The notes under the pieces: generated by a model
The model's database searches: none
Told to the model about the DNA's origin: nothing
What the model saw: only the letters and a program-made list of their open reading frames with translations
Assembly: GCA_964428845.1 (NCBI GenBank)
Contig: CAYRZH010000003.1
Span: 25,884 to 89,883 of the forward strand
DNA from: an uncultured Candidatus Saccharibacteria bacterium
GTDB lineage: Bacteria > Patescibacteriota > Minisyncoccia > Phycocordibacterales > DATGWK01
Direction of reading: 5' to 3'
Length of the DNA: 64,000 nt
Position numbers and translations under genes: made by a program
In this document: in pieces, positions 18,942 to 51,318 of the stretch
How the letters are laid out: each line of letters opens with the position of its first letter
Numbering within the stretch: position 1 is the stretch's first letter

Positions 18942-19649
18942 CTAGGTGGCTTGAGGGACGGCAACTGGTGTATGAGAACCGACTTGCGACACAGCGAACG
19001 CGAACCCGCGGTCACGAAGCCTCCCGCCGCCAGGCCTGCCGCTGCACGCGTTGAGCCAGCGACCACCGCCGACACGGTCCGCGCAGAGCAAGCGCGGATC
19101 GCCGACGGAGTCGTTGATGGGTTCGTGCATGGCAACGATGTACCACAGACCCATCGCTTCGATCTCCTTGTCCGTGAACTTCTCACGGATGAGGCAGGCC
19201 AGTTCGGCGTTCGGCTTCGAGAGCTTGCGTCTGTCGGCCTCGGCGCGGATCTTCTTCGTGGTCCGGTCGTTGTCCTCGAAGAGCATGCCCTTGAGAACGG
19301 CGACTTCGGTCGTCACGCCGCTCGTCGGCTTGAAGTCAGGGCTTCGGAGCACCTGCTTGGCGTAGTCACCCACACGGAGGCCTCTGCTTTTGAGTCGAGT
19401 GATCCAGGCTTTACCGGTCGTGCCGTCGCTCGTAACCCAGAAGTAGATGACGCCGCCTTCCTCGTGCCAACGCTTGGGGGGGTTGGAGAGCGGGAACGGA
19501 CCACGAATCGCGTCGGCAATTCTCACCTGCTCTACCACAGATGCGCCTCGAAATCTCTGCAGATCCGCTCGAGTGACACCCCTGACATCCAAGATCTCCA
19601 ATGTGGCCATGGCTTCCGAAATAGGTATTTCACTGACAAGGCTCCCCAT
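18942..19649 (-). CDS. High-GC island gene 1: hypothetical protein of an unrecognised family (paralog of 50662-51318 and 26555-27223)
   Basis: About 63% GC against an approximately 40% host. Strong SD (GGAAGGAGAcccaaATG). Shares a 331-bp identical block with 50803-51133. C-terminal motif AMHEPINDS...GGGRWL..C.GRP shared with the two other island genes. Confidence 0.7.
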   Translation of the reverse strand: MGSLVSEIPISEAMATLEILDVRGVTRADLQRFRGASVVEQVRIADAIRGPFPLSNPPKRWHEEGGVIYFWVTSDGTTGKAWITRLKSRGLRVGDYAKQVLRSPDFKPTSGVTTEVAVLKGMLFEDNDRTTKKIRAEADRRKLSKPNAELACLIREKFTDKEIEAMGLWYIVAMHEPINDSVGDPRLLCADRVGGGRWLNACSGRPGGGRLRDRGFAFAVSQVGSHTPVAVPQAT

Positions 19650-21998: not shown

Positions 21999-24308
21999 CT
22001 ACTTCGCCACTGTCACCGCCTCCTCAAATTTTATTGAAAGGATCTTTGAGACGCCTCCTATCATGGTGACTCCGTAGAGGATGCCGGCGCGCGACATCGT
22101 TTCCCTATTGTGAGTAATAAGAATGAGCTGAGAGAGCTTAGCAAGATTTTCGATCATATCTCCATACTTCTTTGAGTTGGCCTCATCGAGAGCCGCGTCT
22201 GTTTCGTCCAAAATGATAAATGGTGGTGGGTTTACCTGGGAAATCGCAAAGATAAGAGCGATTGAGGTAAGCGCTCTCTCACCGCCCGAAAGCATCATTA
22301 ATCCTTTGATTTTCTTGCGCGGCAAACTTACAGAAATATCAACCCCCTCTTCTTCCCCCTCGATTGTTTCTGAATTCTCGCCCTCTGGAACAACATCGAT
22401 GTCTGGGCCTTCCTCGAGGAGACTCGAGATGTCGGTGTCTGATCTAGGGCGGCGTTTTTCCTTTACGATTTCGAGTGAGGCACTCCCACCACCAAACATA
22501 AGGGAGAAAAATTCTTCGAATTGTCTGTTTATTTTATCAATGCCTGTCTTAAATTCGGTGTTGATCTTTTGTTCCAGATCACCAATAAGTTTACGGAGAG
22601 ACAGGGCAGATTTTTCCAAATCCGAAAGTTCGCTTGCAAGAAAGGCGTCTCGATCCGAGACATCCTTGTACTCCTTTAGAGTTTCGTCACTCGAAAGGGC
22701 TCCGCTGTCCTCTATCCTGATTTTAATCTTTTCTATTTCACGACGACGATTTTCCTGGAAACTACGATTTTCGCGGGCAATCTCTTTTGTATCGAGCTTG
22801 ACGCTATCTTCTGAAAGGACTTCGAATCTTTCAAAATCCAAAACTTCCCGTCCGATAAGGACACCAGCCTCACCAAGCTCCCTCTTGAAATTCTCTTCCT
22901 CAAGGCGAATTTTATCAGCCAAACTTTTAGAGATATTTAATCTTGAGATGGCTTCATTTTGGAGAGACATTATCTCAAAGACTTTCTTTTCTGCATCTCT
23001 GTTGGTATCTTTTTCTTTTTCTATGTCTCTCTCAAGAATTTTGTACTGCTCATAGGATTCCTTATCTTCTCTGTCAATATTTTTTATCTCTTTTTCAATA
23101 GATGATTTTTCGTGTCGCAACTTTTCTAAATCACTTTCTATTTCACCAAGTGAACCATCGGATGATTTTGACTTATGTTTATGAACAAAAGAATGCAACA
23201 AATCTTTTATCTCATCTAAAATCTTTTGTAGGAAAGTTGGGTTGTCATTTTTTGCGATCTTTTCTACCTCGAACTCTACCTTTTCTATGAGCTCCTCTAC
23301 ATCAGCTATCGCCACTGCTTTGTCTGGAAGCGTGTGGGAAAGCTCTTTTTGTCTTTTAAGCAACCGCTCGCCAGACGATATCTCTCCCTCGATACGGCCC
23401 AGATCGCGCATGAGCTTGTCCTTCTCGATTCTTATTTTCCGTATTTTTTCCTCCAATTCCACGATTTTTGAGCTTTTGGAGTCATGATTCGCGGATTTTC
23501 TAAGAATCTCTTTGGCATGAGAAAGTCCGGCCTCTAGATCTTTAAGTTCTTTGTCTATAGGCCGCCTTTCATTTTCTATCTCCTGTTTTTTTGTAGAAAG
23601 ATAGATACTTTCGCGTTTCAAATATTCTTTGTAAAGCGACAGCAACCTATTCTTCATCTCAAGGGCTTTCTCTACTTTTTCCACTTGCTTCTTGAGGAAT
23701 TTGAGATGAGGCAATATTTCACGACGAAGTGACTCGACAGATTTGATATTTTCTTCGGTTTTAGCAAGTTTGCGCTCACTCTCCTCTCTTTTGTATTGGT
23801 AGACCTTGAGACCAAGCGCACCCTCGATCATTGATTTGCGCTCCTTTGTGTTGGCATTTAGGATCCGATCTGCCTCACCTTGGGAGATAATATGGTGCCC
23901 AGAGGAGCTTATATGAGCACCGGCCATCAGTTCTAGTACGTCACGGAGTCTCACTGCACTGCCGTTTATGAGATACTCGTTTATTCCATCGCGATAGACA
24001 ACTCGTTCCAAGGAGACTTCGTCGAAGTCAAGATCGAGAAAGCGCTTACTATTATCAAATACAATTTTTACAGAAGCACGGTTGGCCCGACCGACGTCTC
24101 CCCCGCCGTTAAAGATAAGGTCTTCACCTTTTTTGCCACGGAGAGACTTGATAGACTGCTCTCCCAGAACAAATCTAAACGCTTCGGCAATATTTGATTT
24201 TCCCGATCCGTTTGGACCAACTATGGCTGAAATCGCTGTACCGAAAGAGAGTTCACATTTTTTAGCAAAAGACTTGAAGCCGGAAAGTTCGAGACTTTTT
24301 AGATACAT
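21999..24308 (-). CDS. smc: SMC-family chromosome segregation ATPase, short form (769 aa)
   Basis: N-terminal FKSF...GPNGSGKSN Walker A. A long charged coiled-coil. C-terminal LSGGERALTSIAL signature and ILDETDAALD Walker B. Confidence 0.8.
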   Translation of the reverse strand: MYLKSLELSGFKSFAKKCELSFGTAISAIVGPNGSGKSNIAEAFRFVLGEQSIKSLRGKKGEDLIFNGGGDVGRANRASVKIVFDNSKRFLDLDFDEVSLERVVYRDGINEYLINGSAVRLRDVLELMAGAHISSSGHHIISQGEADRILNANTKERKSMIEGALGLKVYQYKREESERKLAKTEENIKSVESLRREILPHLKFLKKQVEKVEKALEMKNRLLSLYKEYLKRESIYLSTKKQEIENERRPIDKELKDLEAGLSHAKEILRKSANHDSKSSKIVELEEKIRKIRIEKDKLMRDLGRIEGEISSGERLLKRQKELSHTLPDKAVAIADVEELIEKVEFEVEKIAKNDNPTFLQKILDEIKDLLHSFVHKHKSKSSDGSLGEIESDLEKLRHEKSSIEKEIKNIDREDKESYEQYKILERDIEKEKDTNRDAEKKVFEIMSLQNEAISRLNISKSLADKIRLEEENFKRELGEAGVLIGREVLDFERFEVLSEDSVKLDTKEIARENRSFQENRRREIEKIKIRIEDSGALSSDETLKEYKDVSDRDAFLASELSDLEKSALSLRKLIGDLEQKINTEFKTGIDKINRQFEEFFSLMFGGGSASLEIVKEKRRPRSDTDISSLLEEGPDIDVVPEGENSETIEGEEEGVDISVSLPRKKIKGLMMLSGGERALTSIALIFAISQVNPPPFIILDETDAALDEANSKKYGDMIENLAKLSQLILITHNRETMSRAGILYGVTMIGGVSKILSIKFEEAVTVAK

Positions 24309-24327: not shown

Positions 24328-25026
24328 CTATTTCCAACTCTTAACCTTCAGAGCGTTACGAGCGGCTTCTTGCTCGGCGTCTTGTTTGGACTTGCCAAAG
24401 CCGGTTGCGACAAGCTCTCTGCCTAGGTAGACACCGACGGTAAATTGTTTGTCATGGTCTGGACCGGTTTCCTTGCTGGTTTTGTATGCTGGAGTAACAC
24501 CTTCCATATCTTGGGCACGCTCTTGAAAAAGGCTCTTGGCATCAATCCATGAACCCTTTTCGACGATTTCGTCGATCAGGGGTGAGACATTGTCTAGGAC
24601 AAAAATTTTGGCTTTCTCGTACCCTTGGTCTAGAAAAATGGCGCCGATGATGGATTCGAGGGTATTGGCGAGGATGTATTGACGGGCCCGTCCAGTATCT
24701 TTCATCTCACCGCGAGAAAGAAGTAGGAAATCATTTACCCCAAGCTTGGTAGCTACTTCGGAACAAGTAGTGGCGTTGACCAGAGCAGATCTGTAGGCAG
24801 TCAAATCACCTTCGGTTTTGTCTTTATACTTCTTATACAAATAATCTGTGACGATAAGCTCAAGCACTGCGTCCCCGAGAAACTCCAAGCGCTCATTGTG
24901 TTCTAGGTTAAAGTCCTTGTTTTCATTTATATATGAACGGTGAACAAAGGCCTGTTTTAGAAGGTCCTTGTTTTTAAATGTGACAGCGATCTTTTTTTCA
25001 AAAATTGAAAAATCTGGAATAGACAT
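24328..25026 (-). CDS. rnc: Ribonuclease III
   Basis: ERLEFLGDAVLELIV RNase III signature and a C-terminal dsRBD. Confidence 0.9.
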   Translation of the reverse strand: MSIPDFSIFEKKIAVTFKNKDLLKQAFVHRSYINENKDFNLEHNERLEFLGDAVLELIVTDYLYKKYKDKTEGDLTAYRSALVNATTCSEVATKLGVNDFLLLSRGEMKDTGRARQYILANTLESIIGAIFLDQGYEKAKIFVLDNVSPLIDEIVEKGSWIDAKSLFQERAQDMEGVTPAYKTSKETGPDHDKQFTVGVYLGRELVATGFGKSKQDAEQEAARNALKVKSWK

Positions 25027-25043: not shown

Positions 25044-25985
25044 TTATTTCTTAAGCAAGATATTGATAGCTTTTGTAACAATAGGAAGGATATCGTTGTA
25101 GAAGTTCAGATCAAGGATATCAGCCAATTTGAACCATTTGGCGTCATCGAGACCGCCGTTTCCCTCTTCGAGCTTCAGATCTTTAAACTTCGCTTCGGCA
25201 AGAAAATATACAACCTGTTTTTTCTTTTTGCCATTTTCGGGATGATAGGCAATGTATTCGTTTTCGCCCAGTTTCTCCTTGGGGACTACATCTACGCCTA
25301 TCTCTTCTTTGGCTTTTCTTACAATACCATCAGCATACTCTTCTTCTGGGCCAATTTTCCCTTTGGTAAGGGTCCAGTGGCCGAAGACATCGTGGACAAG
25401 TGCAAGATAGATATCTCCCTTGTGGTGGGAGTAAACTACGGCACCACAGAGTTTTTCTACCGGGATCTTGTCTGCGGGGATATCTTTATTTGGCTTTTTT
25501 TTTGAGGTTTCGTTTTTGCCCGGCTCCCCCATTTCTTTGTACACCGCCCCCAAAACCCCGTTTACAAATTTGCTGCTAGTGTCACCGCCAAATGTTTTGG
25601 CTAGTTCGATAGCTTCGTTGATGGCGACTTTTGGTGGTACCTCGTCTCGATTGCCAAAGATGAGCTCGTAGAGGCCAATTCTTAAAATGTTTCTATCGAC
25701 GACAGATATTTTCTCAAGTGGCCAGTCTGGTGCTGCCTTTACGATTATGTTATCGAGATCTTTTTCTTTCTTGAGCACATTTTTCATAAGTGACTCCATA
25801 AACGAAAAATCTCCTATACCAGGAGCAAATTCTTCTGCATTTCTACGGAAAATTTCCATGGCCTCCTTCTCACTCTTTTTTCCAAAGTCTACTTCAAAGA
25901 GTGACTGCACGACTATTGATCTCGATAGGTGTCTGTTTGCCATATTCTCTATTTGCAAGAACTGTTCACCTTTACTATAACCCAA
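25044..25985 (-). CDS. nusB: Fusion protein: NusB antitermination factor (N-terminal) plus NUDIX hydrolase (C-terminal)
   Basis: N-terminal half resembles NusB (LFEVDF..., VDRNILRIGLYELIF). C-terminal half carries a Nudix box GKIGPEEEYADGIVRKAKEEIGV. Confidence 0.7.
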   Translation of the reverse strand: MGYSKGEQFLQIENMANRHLSRSIVVQSLFEVDFGKKSEKEAMEIFRRNAEEFAPGIGDFSFMESLMKNVLKKEKDLDNIIVKAAPDWPLEKISVVDRNILRIGLYELIFGNRDEVPPKVAINEAIELAKTFGGDTSSKFVNGVLGAVYKEMGEPGKNETSKKKPNKDIPADKIPVEKLCGAVVYSHHKGDIYLALVHDVFGHWTLTKGKIGPEEEYADGIVRKAKEEIGVDVVPKEKLGENEYIAYHPENGKKKKQVVYFLAEAKFKDLKLEEGNGGLDDAKWFKLADILDLNFYNDILPIVTKAINILLKK

Positions 25986-26554: not shown

Positions 26555-27223
26555 CTACTTACGACGGACAAACACCAAGCGGTGGCCAGGACCCCAGACG
26601 CTGAGAGGGCGGCCGTCGCAAGTACGGAGCCACCGCCCACCACAGACGTCGCATCCGACAGAGAACACGTCGAGGTCGCTGTACGAGTCCCAAATGGGAT
26701 GCATCGCGATAGCGACACACTCGTCGTTGGGTTGGTCGATGTACTGCAAGCGCAGTTGCGGACCGGCTTCTGCTGGACAGAGACCAAGTCCGAGCTTGTC
26801 GGCCTCGGCACAGATGTTATAGAAGGCCGTACTGTGCTTGAAGCCGAGTTCAGCTACTGTAACAAGCACGAGGTCGAGTTCTATCGGCTCCTTGCTCACG
26901 ATAAACTCGGGCTTGTCGAGGATGTCGCCCGCCGCCAGGTCGTCGATTTTCATTTTCGCGGACTTGATGGCCCTTCGGAAACCCGCGCCATCCTTGATGC
27001 CGGTGCCGAGCTTGATGGTTTTCCATGTCGACCAGGCCCTAATAGGCTCGGCTCTTGCCCTGCCACCATTGCGGAGAAACTCCGTGAACCGAACCCCCGC
27101 ATTGTGCGGACTGTCGATCAGTGCCTGGACGCCACTTGGGCTAAGCACTTCCCAGTTGGTGTTTGCCCCCAACTTGGCAAGCAACTCGAATCTCTGCTCG
27201 ACGCAGATTGTCTTGGCAGCCAT
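26555..27223 (-). CDS. High-GC island gene 2: hypothetical protein, a divergent paralog of island genes 1 and 3
   Basis: High GC. SD AAAGGAGGtagccaATG. Shared blocks with the island-1/3 proteins: GTGIKDGAG vs DGTTGKAW, ICAEADKLGL vs IRAEADRRKL, AIAMHPIWDS vs IVAMHEPINDS, CGGRWLRTCDGRP vs GGGRWLNACSGRP. Confidence 0.6.
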   Translation of the reverse strand: MAAKTICVEQRFELLAKLGANTNWEVLSPSGVQALIDSPHNAGVRFTEFLRNGGRARAEPIRAWSTWKTIKLGTGIKDGAGFRRAIKSAKMKIDDLAAGDILDKPEFIVSKEPIELDLVLVTVAELGFKHSTAFYNICAEADKLGLGLCPAEAGPQLRLQYIDQPNDECVAIAMHPIWDSYSDLDVFSVGCDVCGGRWLRTCDGRPLSVWGPGHRLVFVRRK

Positions 27224-50661: not shown

Positions 50662-51318
50662 TTAGGATTGAGAACCAACTTGCGGGACAACGAACGCGAA
50701 CCCCCCACCACCATCCCACCTGCGGTCAGGCCCGCCGCCGCGCGCGCGGAGCCAGTCACCACCGTCGCACCGGTCCACGGAGAGCAAGCCCGGAACACCA
50801 CAGGAGTCGTTGATGGGTTCGTGCATGGCAACGATGTACCACAGACCCATCGCTTCGATCTCCTTGTCCGTGAACTTCTCACGGATGAGGCAGGCCAGTT
50901 CGGCGTTCGGCTTCGAGAGCTTGCGTCTGTCGGCCTCGGCGCGGATCTTCTTCGTGGTCCGGTCGTTGTCCTCGAAGAGCATGCCCTTGAGAACGGCGAC
51001 TTCGGTCGTCACGCCGCTCGTCGGCTTGAAGTCAGGGCTTCGGAGCACCTGCTTGGCGTAGTCACCCACACGGAGGCCTCTGCTTTTGAGTCGAGTGATC
51101 CAGGCTTTACCGGTCGTGCCGTCGCTCGTAACCGAGAAGTAGATGACGCCGCCTTCTTCGCGCCACGAACGGGTCGGCTTTGAAACAACCCATTCACCCG
51201 AATTGACGAGTCTGATCGCTTCATTCGGGTCGGTCGAGCCGGTCTGACGCATGATGTTCTTCACCAGTGCGTTCAGCTTGCCGGGTAGCACGTCTGCGAT
51301 TGCGAATTTTGTGCTCAT
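50662..51318 (-). CDS. High-GC island gene 3: hypothetical protein, a close paralog of island gene 1
   Basis: The 331-bp block 50803-51133 is identical to 19108-19438 by manual comparison. SD AAGGAGatacaatcATG. The protein shares EEGGVIYF...GLWYIVAMHEPINDS with island gene 1. Confidence 0.7.
   Translation of the reverse strand: MSTKFAIADVLPGKLNALVKNIMRQTGSTDPNEAIRLVNSGEWVVSKPTRSWREEGGVIYFSVTSDGTTGKAWITRLKSRGLRVGDYAKQVLRSPDFKPTSGVTTEVAVLKGMLFEDNDRTTKKIRAEADRRKLSKPNAELACLIREKFTDKEIEAMGLWYIVAMHEPINDSCGVPGLLSVDRCDGGDWLRARGGGPDRRWDGGGGFAFVVPQVGSQS

Follow-up and report, generated by a model that had tools for sequence, protein, structure and literature searches.

The window, by which we mean the whole stretch of 64,000 nucleotides that was analysed, encodes on its minus strand a fusion protein made up of a NusB domain, a Lys-rich linker and a Nudix-fold domain (nusB::nudix). 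An uninterrupted open reading frame of 313 aa runs from a TTG codon (25044-25985, minus strand) and corresponds to the single 313-aa frame of the original prediction, which had given no strand. The TTG at 25985 lies in frame upstream of an ATG and would add 14 aa, and homologues do not use it as a start. Because 111 homologues open with MANRHL and are 296-304 aa long, translation almost certainly begins with the ATG at 25943, so that the likely coding sequence (25044..25943, minus strand) comprises 299 aa and a stop codon at 25044-25046. A database protein of this length (P0001, 299 aa) is 100% identical to the window protein.

Across the family the gene lies in a cluster with the order rnhB-rpmF-nusB::nudix-rnc-smc. 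In the window, immediately upstream across a 56-nt gap, is rpmF (ribosomal protein L32, PF01783; 26000..26221, minus strand), and 17 nt downstream is rnc (RNase III, with PF14622, PF00636 and dsrm; 24328..25026, minus strand), followed by the gene for a short SMC-like ATPase of 769 aa (PF02463, SMC_N; 21999..24308, minus strand). The rpmF-to-smc part of this order is held in 74-77 of 80 related loci, with rpmF upstream in 76, rnc directly downstream in 77 and the SMC-like gene present in 74. Both divergent members examined also have rnc directly downstream, and the gene order is kept in members only ~30% identical in the Nudix half. Judged only by the short intergenic gaps, rnc is probably co-transcribed with nusB::nudix. 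A promoter-like site upstream of rpmF (26257-26230, minus strand) is a consensus match only, and promoters and terminators predicted across the cluster were no more numerous than in shuffled sequence. Neither an rRNA operon nor a boxA was found in the 64-kb window, in which the RNA scan found just one tRNA.

NusB is a universal bacterial transcription factor, normally single-domain. It forms a pair with ribosomal protein S10 that binds boxA RNA and starts the assembly of the rRNA antitermination complex. The NusB domain of the window protein is all-helical and covers aa 1-140 (25524..25943, minus strand). Pfam places NusB (PF01029) at aa 21-150 of the 313-aa frame (E=1.2e-32, 113.5 bits against a cutoff of 23.1), and the nusB equivalog model TIGR01951 scores 121.4 bits, its trusted cutoff being 88.35. 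This half matches T. maritima NusB (PDB 1tzt) at a profile E-value of 2.4e-35 and M. tuberculosis NusB (1eyv) at a Foldseek TM of 0.83, and AF2 models it as seven helices over residues 4-138 with a pLDDT of ~90. The motifs for RNA and S10 interaction are all present, namely the Arg-rich N-terminus together with VAINEAIELAK and KFVNGVL, both of which are the same in the window protein and E. coli NusB when the two are aligned. In the fusion family R4, R8, Q13, E110, A111, E113, F126 and N128-L131 are conserved at 90% or more. Since the protein scores above the TIGR01951 trusted cutoff and matches solved NusB structures in sequence and fold, we regard this gene as the organism's own NusB; no second NusB and no Nudix gene of the same type were found in the 64-kb window. 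The original prediction was right that a stand-alone NusB has about 140 aa, and against that single-domain form the window protein, with 299 aa and an added Nudix-fold domain, falls outside and represents a variant architecture that is real and conserved.

The two halves are joined by a flexible, Lys-rich linker, PGKNETSKKKPNKDIPADKI (aa 141-160; 25464..25523, minus strand), of which residues 141-152 have an AF2 pLDDT below 50. Across the family the linker varies from 12 to 42 aa, remains in frame and has a mean identity of 47%. With a mean pLDDT of 88, a pTM of just 0.53 and this disordered linker, the AF2 model shows two domains that are therefore predicted to fold independently.

The C-terminal half (aa 161-299; 25047..25463, minus strand) is a Nudix-fold domain of the Ap4A/Ap6A-hydrolase type. 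The original prediction had placed NusB and a C-terminal Nudix-fold domain in one polypeptide, had asked for Pfam assignment, and was to fall if the C-terminal half lay below the Nudix profile threshold. Both domains were found above their curated thresholds, NUDIX (PF00293) at aa 199-297 of the 313-aa frame with E=2.1e-10 and 41.2 bits against a cutoff of 21.1. The best profile match was the Aquifex Ap4A hydrolase 3i7u (E=2.3e-19), which also superimposes with a Foldseek TM of 0.89 and an rmsd of 1.9 A, in keeping with the alpha/beta/alpha Nudix fold, followed by CT771 (1.2e-15), Ndx1 (1.1e-13) and then the C. elegans and human Ap4A hydrolases. Dcp2 catalytic domains were significant profile matches (~1e-9), the Bdellovibrio RppH 3ees reached just 2.3e-4, and NrtR 3gz8 gave the best Foldseek E-value. 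The W-T-x-x-K-G motif of the Ap4A/Ap6A branch is kept, and so are the Lys downstream of it and a C-terminal Tyr. In both sequence and fold the half is closest to the bacterial Ap4A/Ap6A-hydrolase branch, from which it appears to descend. Identity as RppH was rejected, the RppH models NF001936 and NF001938 scoring 20.9 and 12.7 bits where 118 and 116 are required, with K210 at the equivalent of E53. Identity as NudC, the NAD/dpCoA-cap enzyme, was rejected as well: a Pfam scan at E<=1 contained no zinc ribbon or NADH-pyrophosphatase domain, and NudC structures were distant Foldseek matches (TM 0.31-0.33).

The Nudix box, GKIGPEEEYADGIVRKAKEEIGV (aa 195-217), is encoded at 25293..25361 (minus strand) exactly as had been predicted, but it is not canonical. 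It reads G-X5-E-X7-R-K-A-K-E-E-I-G-V, with RKAKEE in place of REUXEE. Six of the seven signature residues are present (G1, E7, R15, E19, E20 and G22), and the Glu of the 'RE' pair (E16) is replaced by K210 (codon AAA; 25314..25316, minus strand), which corresponds to E53 of E. coli RppH. K210 is not a sequencing error, because an independent homologue at 90% identity (P0002) also has Lys there; relatives at 77-83% identity to the window protein have E, A or S. The E53A mutant of E. coli RppH is inactive (PMC6061791), and CFIm25, which lacks the second and fourth conserved Glu and works in an RNA-processing complex, binds Ap4A at 2.4 uM and does not hydrolyse it (PMC2425470).

Erosion of the box extends across the family. 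The complete GX5EX7REUXEEXGU signature is found in 74 of 223 members and in 5 of 37 divergent cluster representatives. Glu occupies E16 in 84 of the 223 relatives and another residue does so in 139; among the residues seen there are K, V, E, G, I, A and N. When the family was thinned at 70% identity to 56 sequences (K in 16, V in 13 and E in 13), E16 ranked 102nd of 145 columns in conservation. The minimum number of changes by parsimony on the family tree was 59 for E16, 39 for E19 and 30 for R15, and E20 is 89-99% conserved family-wide. Some divergent members retain almost none of the box, and P0239 has no NUDIX Pfam match. As a control, 'RE' is kept in 16 of 19 stand-alone-length relatives; the three that lack it (P0237, P0140 and P0190) could represent pieces of fusion genes.

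The residues that align with the substrate pocket of Ap4A hydrolases behave differently from E16. D185, W190, K194, Y230, Y246, W270 and Y282 each show 0-3 changes by parsimony, in a run that did not include K242, and these seven and K242 are 92-100% conserved in the 139 sequences without E16. W190, K194, K242 and Y282 are invariant or almost so, and Y230 is almost invariant. The alignment is to W32, K36, F75/Y76, K83, Y87 and Y121 of the C. elegans Ap4A hydrolase, the register of Y230 against Tyr76 being uncertain by 1-4 residues. In Ap4A hydrolases the equivalent Lys and Tyr bind the P1 phosphate and stack the adenine (PMC4734340, PMC2425470). At matched NusB divergence the identity of the Nudix half is 0.68 in the E16-lost sequences against 0.71, which is only slightly faster evolution, and mean pairwise identity is 59% for the Nudix half against 67% for the NusB half. 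These figures are consistent with a Nudix half that stays under purifying selection. The half is mildly acidic, with a mean net charge of about -5, and non-specific binding of the RNA backbone is disfavoured on this ground.

Collinear fusion proteins of ~299 aa are present in no fewer than 454 GTDB species-level genomes of Patescibacteria (Paceibacteria-type), and the best 120 database matches are all ~299 aa with both Pfam domains. The fusion is kept, with no confirmed split, down to ~28-30% identity. Two apparent split forms were examined and rejected: P0129 is what a contig end has left of a fusion gene, namely its 3' half, followed by rnc, and P0137, which lies on a 695-bp contig, looks like a chimera whose N-half is MutT-like and whose C-half belongs to the fusion family. 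By these comparisons the gene is a real fusion, ancient and fixed in its lineage of Patescibacteria, and the usual form of NusB across a large group of Patescibacteria/CPR. The databases name these proteins just 'NusB', with the Nudix domain unmentioned, and a search of open-access papers found no description of a NusB-Nudix fusion.

We propose, with a probability of roughly 0.5, that the protein is a genuine NusB with a tethered, mostly non-catalytic module for binding nucleotide polyphosphates. Because the key catalytic residue is lost in the window protein and in most relatives, the Nudix half more likely binds than hydrolyses its nucleotide, both here and in most of the family. The NusB of a Patescibacteria lineage has permanently gained a C-terminal Nudix-fold domain through a ~20-aa Lys-rich tether. 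In the proposed scheme the domain would no longer depend on the canonical catalytic apparatus, and its selected function would be to bind a nucleoside polyphosphate without turnover. Candidate ligands are free Np4N or NTP and a nascent transcript whose 5' end carries (p)ppN or an Np4 cap. Held by NusB, the Nudix half might serve as a sensor or anchor beside the RNA exit channel, and would be co-expressed with L32 and RNase III in a ribosome-biogenesis cluster. Several points count against binding without turnover. With six box residues intact and E20 conserved, the metal site and some activity could survive, and with about one-third of the family carrying a canonical box, hydrolysis may still be important for some of its lineages. 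The invariant aromatic residues might be kept for folding and not for a ligand. Some Nudix enzymes have their catalytic base outside the box; an E16-independent mechanism is possible in the Nudix half, and so is residual or non-canonical activity.

A different reading takes the Nudix half as an active, transcription-coupled hydrolase, either of the Ap4A/Np4N type or of an RppH-like kind (RNA 5'-pyrophosphohydrolase or decapping), which would work through E7, E19 and E20 and take its base from another part of the protein. Brought to nascent (r)RNA by NusB, it would allow 5'-end conversion to be coordinated with processing by RNase III. The Pfam score above the gathering threshold agrees with this, as does a box that lacks one residue only, retains an almost invariant E20 and is perfect in a third of the members; however, the missing residue is the one that is nearly free to vary, that RppH needs and that the non-hydrolysing CFIm25 lacks. 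R15 and E19 vary too, and some divergent members are almost without a box. The nearest solved relatives are real hydrolases and the Dcp2 matches are significant, whereas the RppH models score far below cutoff. The conserved rnc adjacency brings an RNA-processing theme, yet the acidic surface of the domain is not RNA-friendly. An active hydrolase seems to us possible but doubtful.

The fusion might also be functionally uncoupled, a housekeeping Nudix gene having joined nusB by chance in a genome-reduced ancestor and having been kept for co-expression or economy, so that each half works on its own while the Nudix half slowly decays. Genome streamlining in Patescibacteria favours gene fusions, and the flexible linker, the low pTM with no predicted interdomain packing and the eroding catalytic motif all fit such a history. 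A decaying passenger would hardly be expected to differ so little from NusB in pairwise identity, or to hold invariant residues after the loss of E16. Nor has the fusion come apart across its many species, the close matches examined that looked stand-alone being a contig-end fragment or a chimera, and we consider an uncoupled fusion improbable. That a sequencing or assembly frameshift joined a nusB gene to a Nudix gene, a concern raised with the original prediction, has nothing beyond the unusual length to suggest it and can be dismissed almost entirely. Assemblies from NCBI, JGI, ENA and Logan all contain the same collinear proteins of ~299 aa, and the linker keeps the reading frame while varying in length. 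In every one of the 80 related loci the relative is unbroken; 79 cover nearly the whole query, and the remaining one (L059) is cut short by a contig end. Frameshift or misassembly is excluded by this comparison with thousands of independent assemblies that carry the collinear two-domain protein.

To return to the preferred reading, a NusB with a tethered binding module, we infer a coupling to antitermination from two things, the covalent tether and the synteny. The original prediction had suggested that the fusion might couple antitermination to hydrolysis of nucleotides or of NAD/dpCoA caps. Its NusB-Nudix fusion is borne out as a conserved feature; the hydrolysis is not, given Lys at the position of RppH E53 and of the Glu lost from CFIm25, a poorly conserved E16, no features of NudC, low RppH scores and the Ap4A/Ap6A hydrolases as nearest relatives. 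The domain resembles a nucleotide-binding module that has been kept more than it does an enzyme devoted to decapping. A more specific and speculative version, which we think unlikely as it stands, makes the Nudix half a tethered pseudo-enzyme and a lineage-specific subunit of the machinery for rRNA antitermination and processing in Patescibacteria. Such a subunit would capture the nascent rRNA leader by its 5'-(p)ppN or Np4N-capped end or sense Ap4A-type alarmones, so that NusB-dependent transcription of rRNA would be tied to processing by RNase III or to the state of stress, much as SuhB is used independently of catalysis in E. coli.

Among ultra-small and for the most part uncultured bacteria, a whole class has exchanged NusB for a two-domain protein, which points to a lineage-specific change in the organisation of rRNA transcription or processing. 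Patescibacteria are already known for unusual ribosomes. With variable catalytic residues and frozen pocket-aligned residues, the family offers a natural example of an enzyme fold that has apparently become a binding module. Where the Nudix half was noticed at all under the 'NusB' names, it would be mistaken for an active hydrolase.

Compared with stand-alone NusB proteins (E. coli, T. maritima 1tzt, M. tuberculosis 1eyv and Aquifex 3r2c), the window protein has the same motifs, Arg-rich N-terminus and predicted helical fold, to which it adds a ~20-aa linker and a 139-aa Nudix-fold domain. Its gene lies in an rpmF-nusB-rnc-smc cluster, unlike the ribH-nusB or nusB-folD arrangements of E. coli and B. 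subtilis. The one well-known protein in which a NusB-type domain is fused to an rRNA-directed enzyme fold is RsmB/Sun, where a NusB-like domain is joined to a 16S rRNA methyltransferase. RsmB/Sun models match the window protein partially, through the NusB-like region; the RsmB domain is a divergent RNA-binding module, whereas the window half is by its sequence a bona fide NusB orthologue with a Nudix partner.

On the Nudix side, the Ap4A/Ap6A hydrolases (Aquifex aq_158 3i7u, T. thermophilus Ndx1 1vc8 and Chlamydia CT771) and NUDT2 share D-x-x-G-x-W-T-x-P-K-G with the window domain. They are stand-alone proteins with an intact REUXEE, whereas the window domain is fused to NusB and has Lys for the Glu of 'RE'. 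RppH and Dcp2 belong to the same Nudix superfamily and are directed at RNA 5' ends, as the original prediction had envisaged for this domain, but RppH differs in its model scores and in its essential E53, where the window protein has Lys. In SuhB, a member of the E. coli rRNA antitermination complex, and in Nudix sensors such as NrtR, a small-molecule-phosphatase or Nudix fold serves binding or structure in transcription control instead of catalysis. SuhB, however, is a separate protein of IMPase fold, and NrtR is a DNA-binding repressor, whereas contact of the window Nudix half with RNA polymerase or Nus factors is hypothetical. The closest functional analogy may be CFIm25 (NUDT21), a Nudix fold that is missing the same second Glu and binds Ap4A and ATP without hydrolysis (PMC2425470). 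CFIm25 was absent from the listed best sequence and Foldseek matches of the Nudix half, and it differs from the window protein in being eukaryotic, in having N- and C-terminal extensions and no fusion to a transcription factor, and in lacking the fourth Glu as well.

The nusB::nudix gene is one ORF (25044-25985; 313 aa from a TTG codon) encoding both domains, as the original prediction had described, and lies on the minus strand. Both halves are assigned by Pfam above the gathering score, NusB at aa 21-150 (E=1.2e-32) and NUDIX at aa 199-297 (E=2.1e-10) of the 313-aa ORF, and the protein scores 121.4 bits with the NCBIfam NusB equivalog TIGR01951 (cutoff 88.35). Since 111 database homologues of 296-304 aa begin with MANRHL, the start is almost certainly the ATG at 25943, giving a protein of 299 aa whose numbering is used below. 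The Nudix-box motif GKIGPEEEYADGIVRKAKEEIGV (25293-25361, minus strand) translates to the peptide originally quoted. No second NusB or Nudix of the same type was found elsewhere in the 64-kb window.

The AlphaFold2 model of the protein, based on a 63-sequence alignment, has a mean pLDDT of 88 (under 50 for residues 141-152) but a pTM of 0.53, and so indicates two well-folded independent domains on a flexible tether. This interdomain linker (PGKNETSKKKPNKDIPADKI) is the least conserved segment of the protein, and its length ranges between 12 and 42 aa among family members. In fold comparison the NusB half reaches a TM of 0.83 to M. tuberculosis NusB, and the Nudix half a TM of 0.89 (rmsd 1.9 A) to the Aquifex Ap4A hydrolase 3i7u. 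When a profile of the Nudix half was run against PDB sequences, 3i7u gave E=2.3e-19, Chlamydia CT771 1.2e-15, the T. thermophilus Ap6A hydrolase Ndx1 1.1e-13, the C. elegans and human Ap4A hydrolases about 6e-12, Dcp2 about 1e-9 and Bdellovibrio RppH only 2.3e-4. Identity as RppH was rejected because NCBIfam RppH models scored far under cutoff, and identity as NudC because the NudC-specific domains were absent from the Pfam scan. By every sequence and fold test the protein is a NusB, except that it is not a single-domain one; the C-terminal half is a member of the Nudix superfamily by fold and profile, but without the full box. A phmmer search of 1.84 billion cluster representatives with the Nudix half returned only 739 matches at E<=1e-3 and 141 at E<=1e-10, the latter mostly fusions or fusion fragments, so on these matches this Nudix type is found mainly inside the NusB fusion.

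The best 120 matches in a collection of 5.8 billion proteins, derived from NCBI, JGI, ENA and Logan assemblies, are all collinear, about 299 aa long and equipped with both Pfam domains; their source labels are 'NusB' of Patescibacteria, Parcubacteria, Paceibacterota or Zambryskibacteria. Surveying the fusion's spread in one genome per GTDB species detected relatives in at least 454 genomes, a lower bound because the survey patterns were derived from the query. Collinear proteins in so many assemblies and genomes dispose of the concern that a frameshift had joined two genes, and the probability that the fusion is an artefact is negligible. Thousands of these proteins are already in public databases with both domains precomputed, under the name 'NusB' only, and no description of the fusion was found in the open-access literature searched.

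In 80 fetched loci the one-strand order is rnhB, rpmF (L32), nusB::nudix, rnc (RNase III) and smc, with dnaE divergent to the cluster; of the 80, 77 have rnc as a neighbour, 76 have rpmF and 74 have smc. The order is unchanged in members whose Nudix half is about 28-31% identical. In the window, where Pfam supports the identity of the neighbours, the gaps are 56 nt (rpmF-nusB), 17 nt (nusB-rnc) and 19 nt (rnc-smc); terminator-like matches do not outnumber those in shuffled sequence, and the gaps themselves contain none. The data show a true NusB orthologue in permanent fusion with a Nudix fold of the Ap4A/Ap6A-hydrolase type, a fusion that extends across the lineage in synteny with rpmF and rnc.

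The SMC-like gene 3' of rnc (21999-24308, minus strand) encodes 769 aa, and its counterparts in divergent relatives about 700 aa, much shorter than canonical SMC proteins of about 1,100-1,200 aa; an SMC_N match covers the full protein and a hinge-domain Pfam match is absent. The rnhB-rpmF interval, only a few hundred bases in many related genomes, here contains a GC-rich orphan gene (26555-27223, minus strand; 222 aa, 58% GC). A second copy (18942-19649, minus strand; 235 aa, about 54% GC) lies between rpsP and the RNase R gene, and a third (about 50665-51222, minus strand) within a 1-kb stretch of 52.5% GC, against a whole-window GC of 44.8%. Copies 2 and 3 are 77% identical, while copies 1 and 2 show about 31% identity and a common C-terminal GGRWL..C.GRP motif. 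Neither Pfam nor PHROG matches this family, and of 80 related loci a single one has a homologue; its appearance is that of a multi-copy gene that is mobile or was acquired recently. Near-consensus sigma-70-like matches lie just 5' of rpmF (TTGATT-16-TATAAT, 26257-26230, minus strand) and 5' of copy 1 (TTGACA-17-TACAAT, 27331-27303, minus strand), in a region whose promoter-match total is no higher than that of shuffled sequence.

The window box reads G-X5-E-X7-R-K-A-K-E-E-I-G-V, with Lys210 at position 16 in place of the 'RE' glutamate. The equivalent residue in E. coli RppH is E53 (motif residues 38-60), and the E53A mutant is inactive (PMC6061791). Scoring G1, E7, R15, E16, E19, E20 and G22 in 223 non-identical family members found the full signature in 74 (69 among 186 close relatives, plus 5 among the 37 divergent representatives of 50% clusters) and Glu16 in only 84. 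Thinning at 70% identity leaves 56 sequences, in which position 16 is K in 16, V in 13 and E in 13, and ranks 102nd of 145 columns in conservation; relatives sharing 77-90% identity with the window protein have K, E, A or S. Stand-alone-length relatives retain 'RE' in 16 of 19 cases, and the other three may be fusion-gene fragments. For E16, E19 and R15, Fitch parsimony on a simple NJ tree of identity distances requires a minimum of 59, 39 and 30 changes respectively, against 0-3 for W190, K194, Y230, Y246, W270, Y282 and D185.

HMM alignment to the C. elegans Ap4A hydrolase pairs W190, T191 and K194 with W32, T33 and K36, K242 with K83, Y246 with Y87 and Y282 with Y121; Y230 falls at F75/Y76 to within a residue or loop gap. 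Individual residue roles in that enzyme were reportedly assigned by Bailey et al. in 2002. In Ap4A hydrolases the PKG-motif Lys, a second Lys further downstream and a loop-5 Tyr together hold the P1 phosphate, and the adenine is sandwiched by the same Tyr and a Tyr/Phe of the C-terminal region (PMC4734340; PMC2425470). The conserved residues are still 92-100% conserved in the 139 sequences without Glu16, where the rest of the Nudix domain evolves just slightly faster, at matched NusB divergence, than in canonical-box lineages. Pairs of sequences share on average 59% identity in the Nudix domain, 67% in NusB and 47% in the linker, and by this comparison the Nudix domain overall is under purifying selection. 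The alignments show an eroded catalytic box, with the residues that align to the Ap4A-hydrolase pocket frozen.

Other architectures occur among database relatives. P0209 (577 aa; contig L086, 3605-5338) has a partial NusB, the same Nudix type and a weak cold-shock-domain match, and lies outside the usual synteny beside NB-ARC, HEPN_Swt1 and a DDE transposase, in a defence-island-like context. P0222 joins sigma-70 region 4 and a DnaA C-terminal HTH to a Nudix with an 'RK' box, and P0138 adds a weak Rho_N/SAP-like C-terminal tail to NusB-Nudix. P0222 and P0138, single sequences and possible chimeras, hint that the Nudix type is repeatedly joined to nucleic-acid-binding modules. P0137, an apparent stand-alone Nudix on a 695-bp contig (L081), has a MutT-like N-half (WVAPGG, canonical REIKEE) and a C-half typical of the fusion family, and is probably an assembly chimera or recombinant.

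Our preferred reading, with a probability of about 0.5, is that the added Nudix domain was selected for nucleoside-polyphosphate binding, not turnover. Six of the seven signature residues are intact in the window protein, E20 is nearly invariant and one third of the family has a fully canonical box, all of which would suit an active hydrolase of non-canonical mechanism; set beside the repeated loss of Glu16, we consider this possible but doubtful. That the two halves, independently folded as they appear and joined throughout the lineage, are functionally uncoupled seems quite improbable. Non-specific RNA binding by the Nudix half is disfavoured by its mildly acidic surface. As a binding domain tethered to NusB near the RNA exit path, it would serve as sensor or anchor, with free Np4N or NTP, or the nascent-transcript 5' end, as candidate ligand. 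The conserved adjacency of rnc and rpmF suggests a ribosome-biogenesis context.

The NusB-Nudix fusion is a genuine and ancient oddity of the Patescibacterial transcription machinery that can be put to the test; its function we infer. A conceptual precedent is SuhB, which the rRNA antitermination complex of E. coli uses independently of catalysis. Like the window protein, CFIm25 lacks the position-16 glutamate of the Nudix box, and it lacks the fourth glutamate as well; it binds Ap4A (Kd 2.4 uM) and ATP, hydrolyses neither, and works within an RNA-processing complex (PMC2425470).
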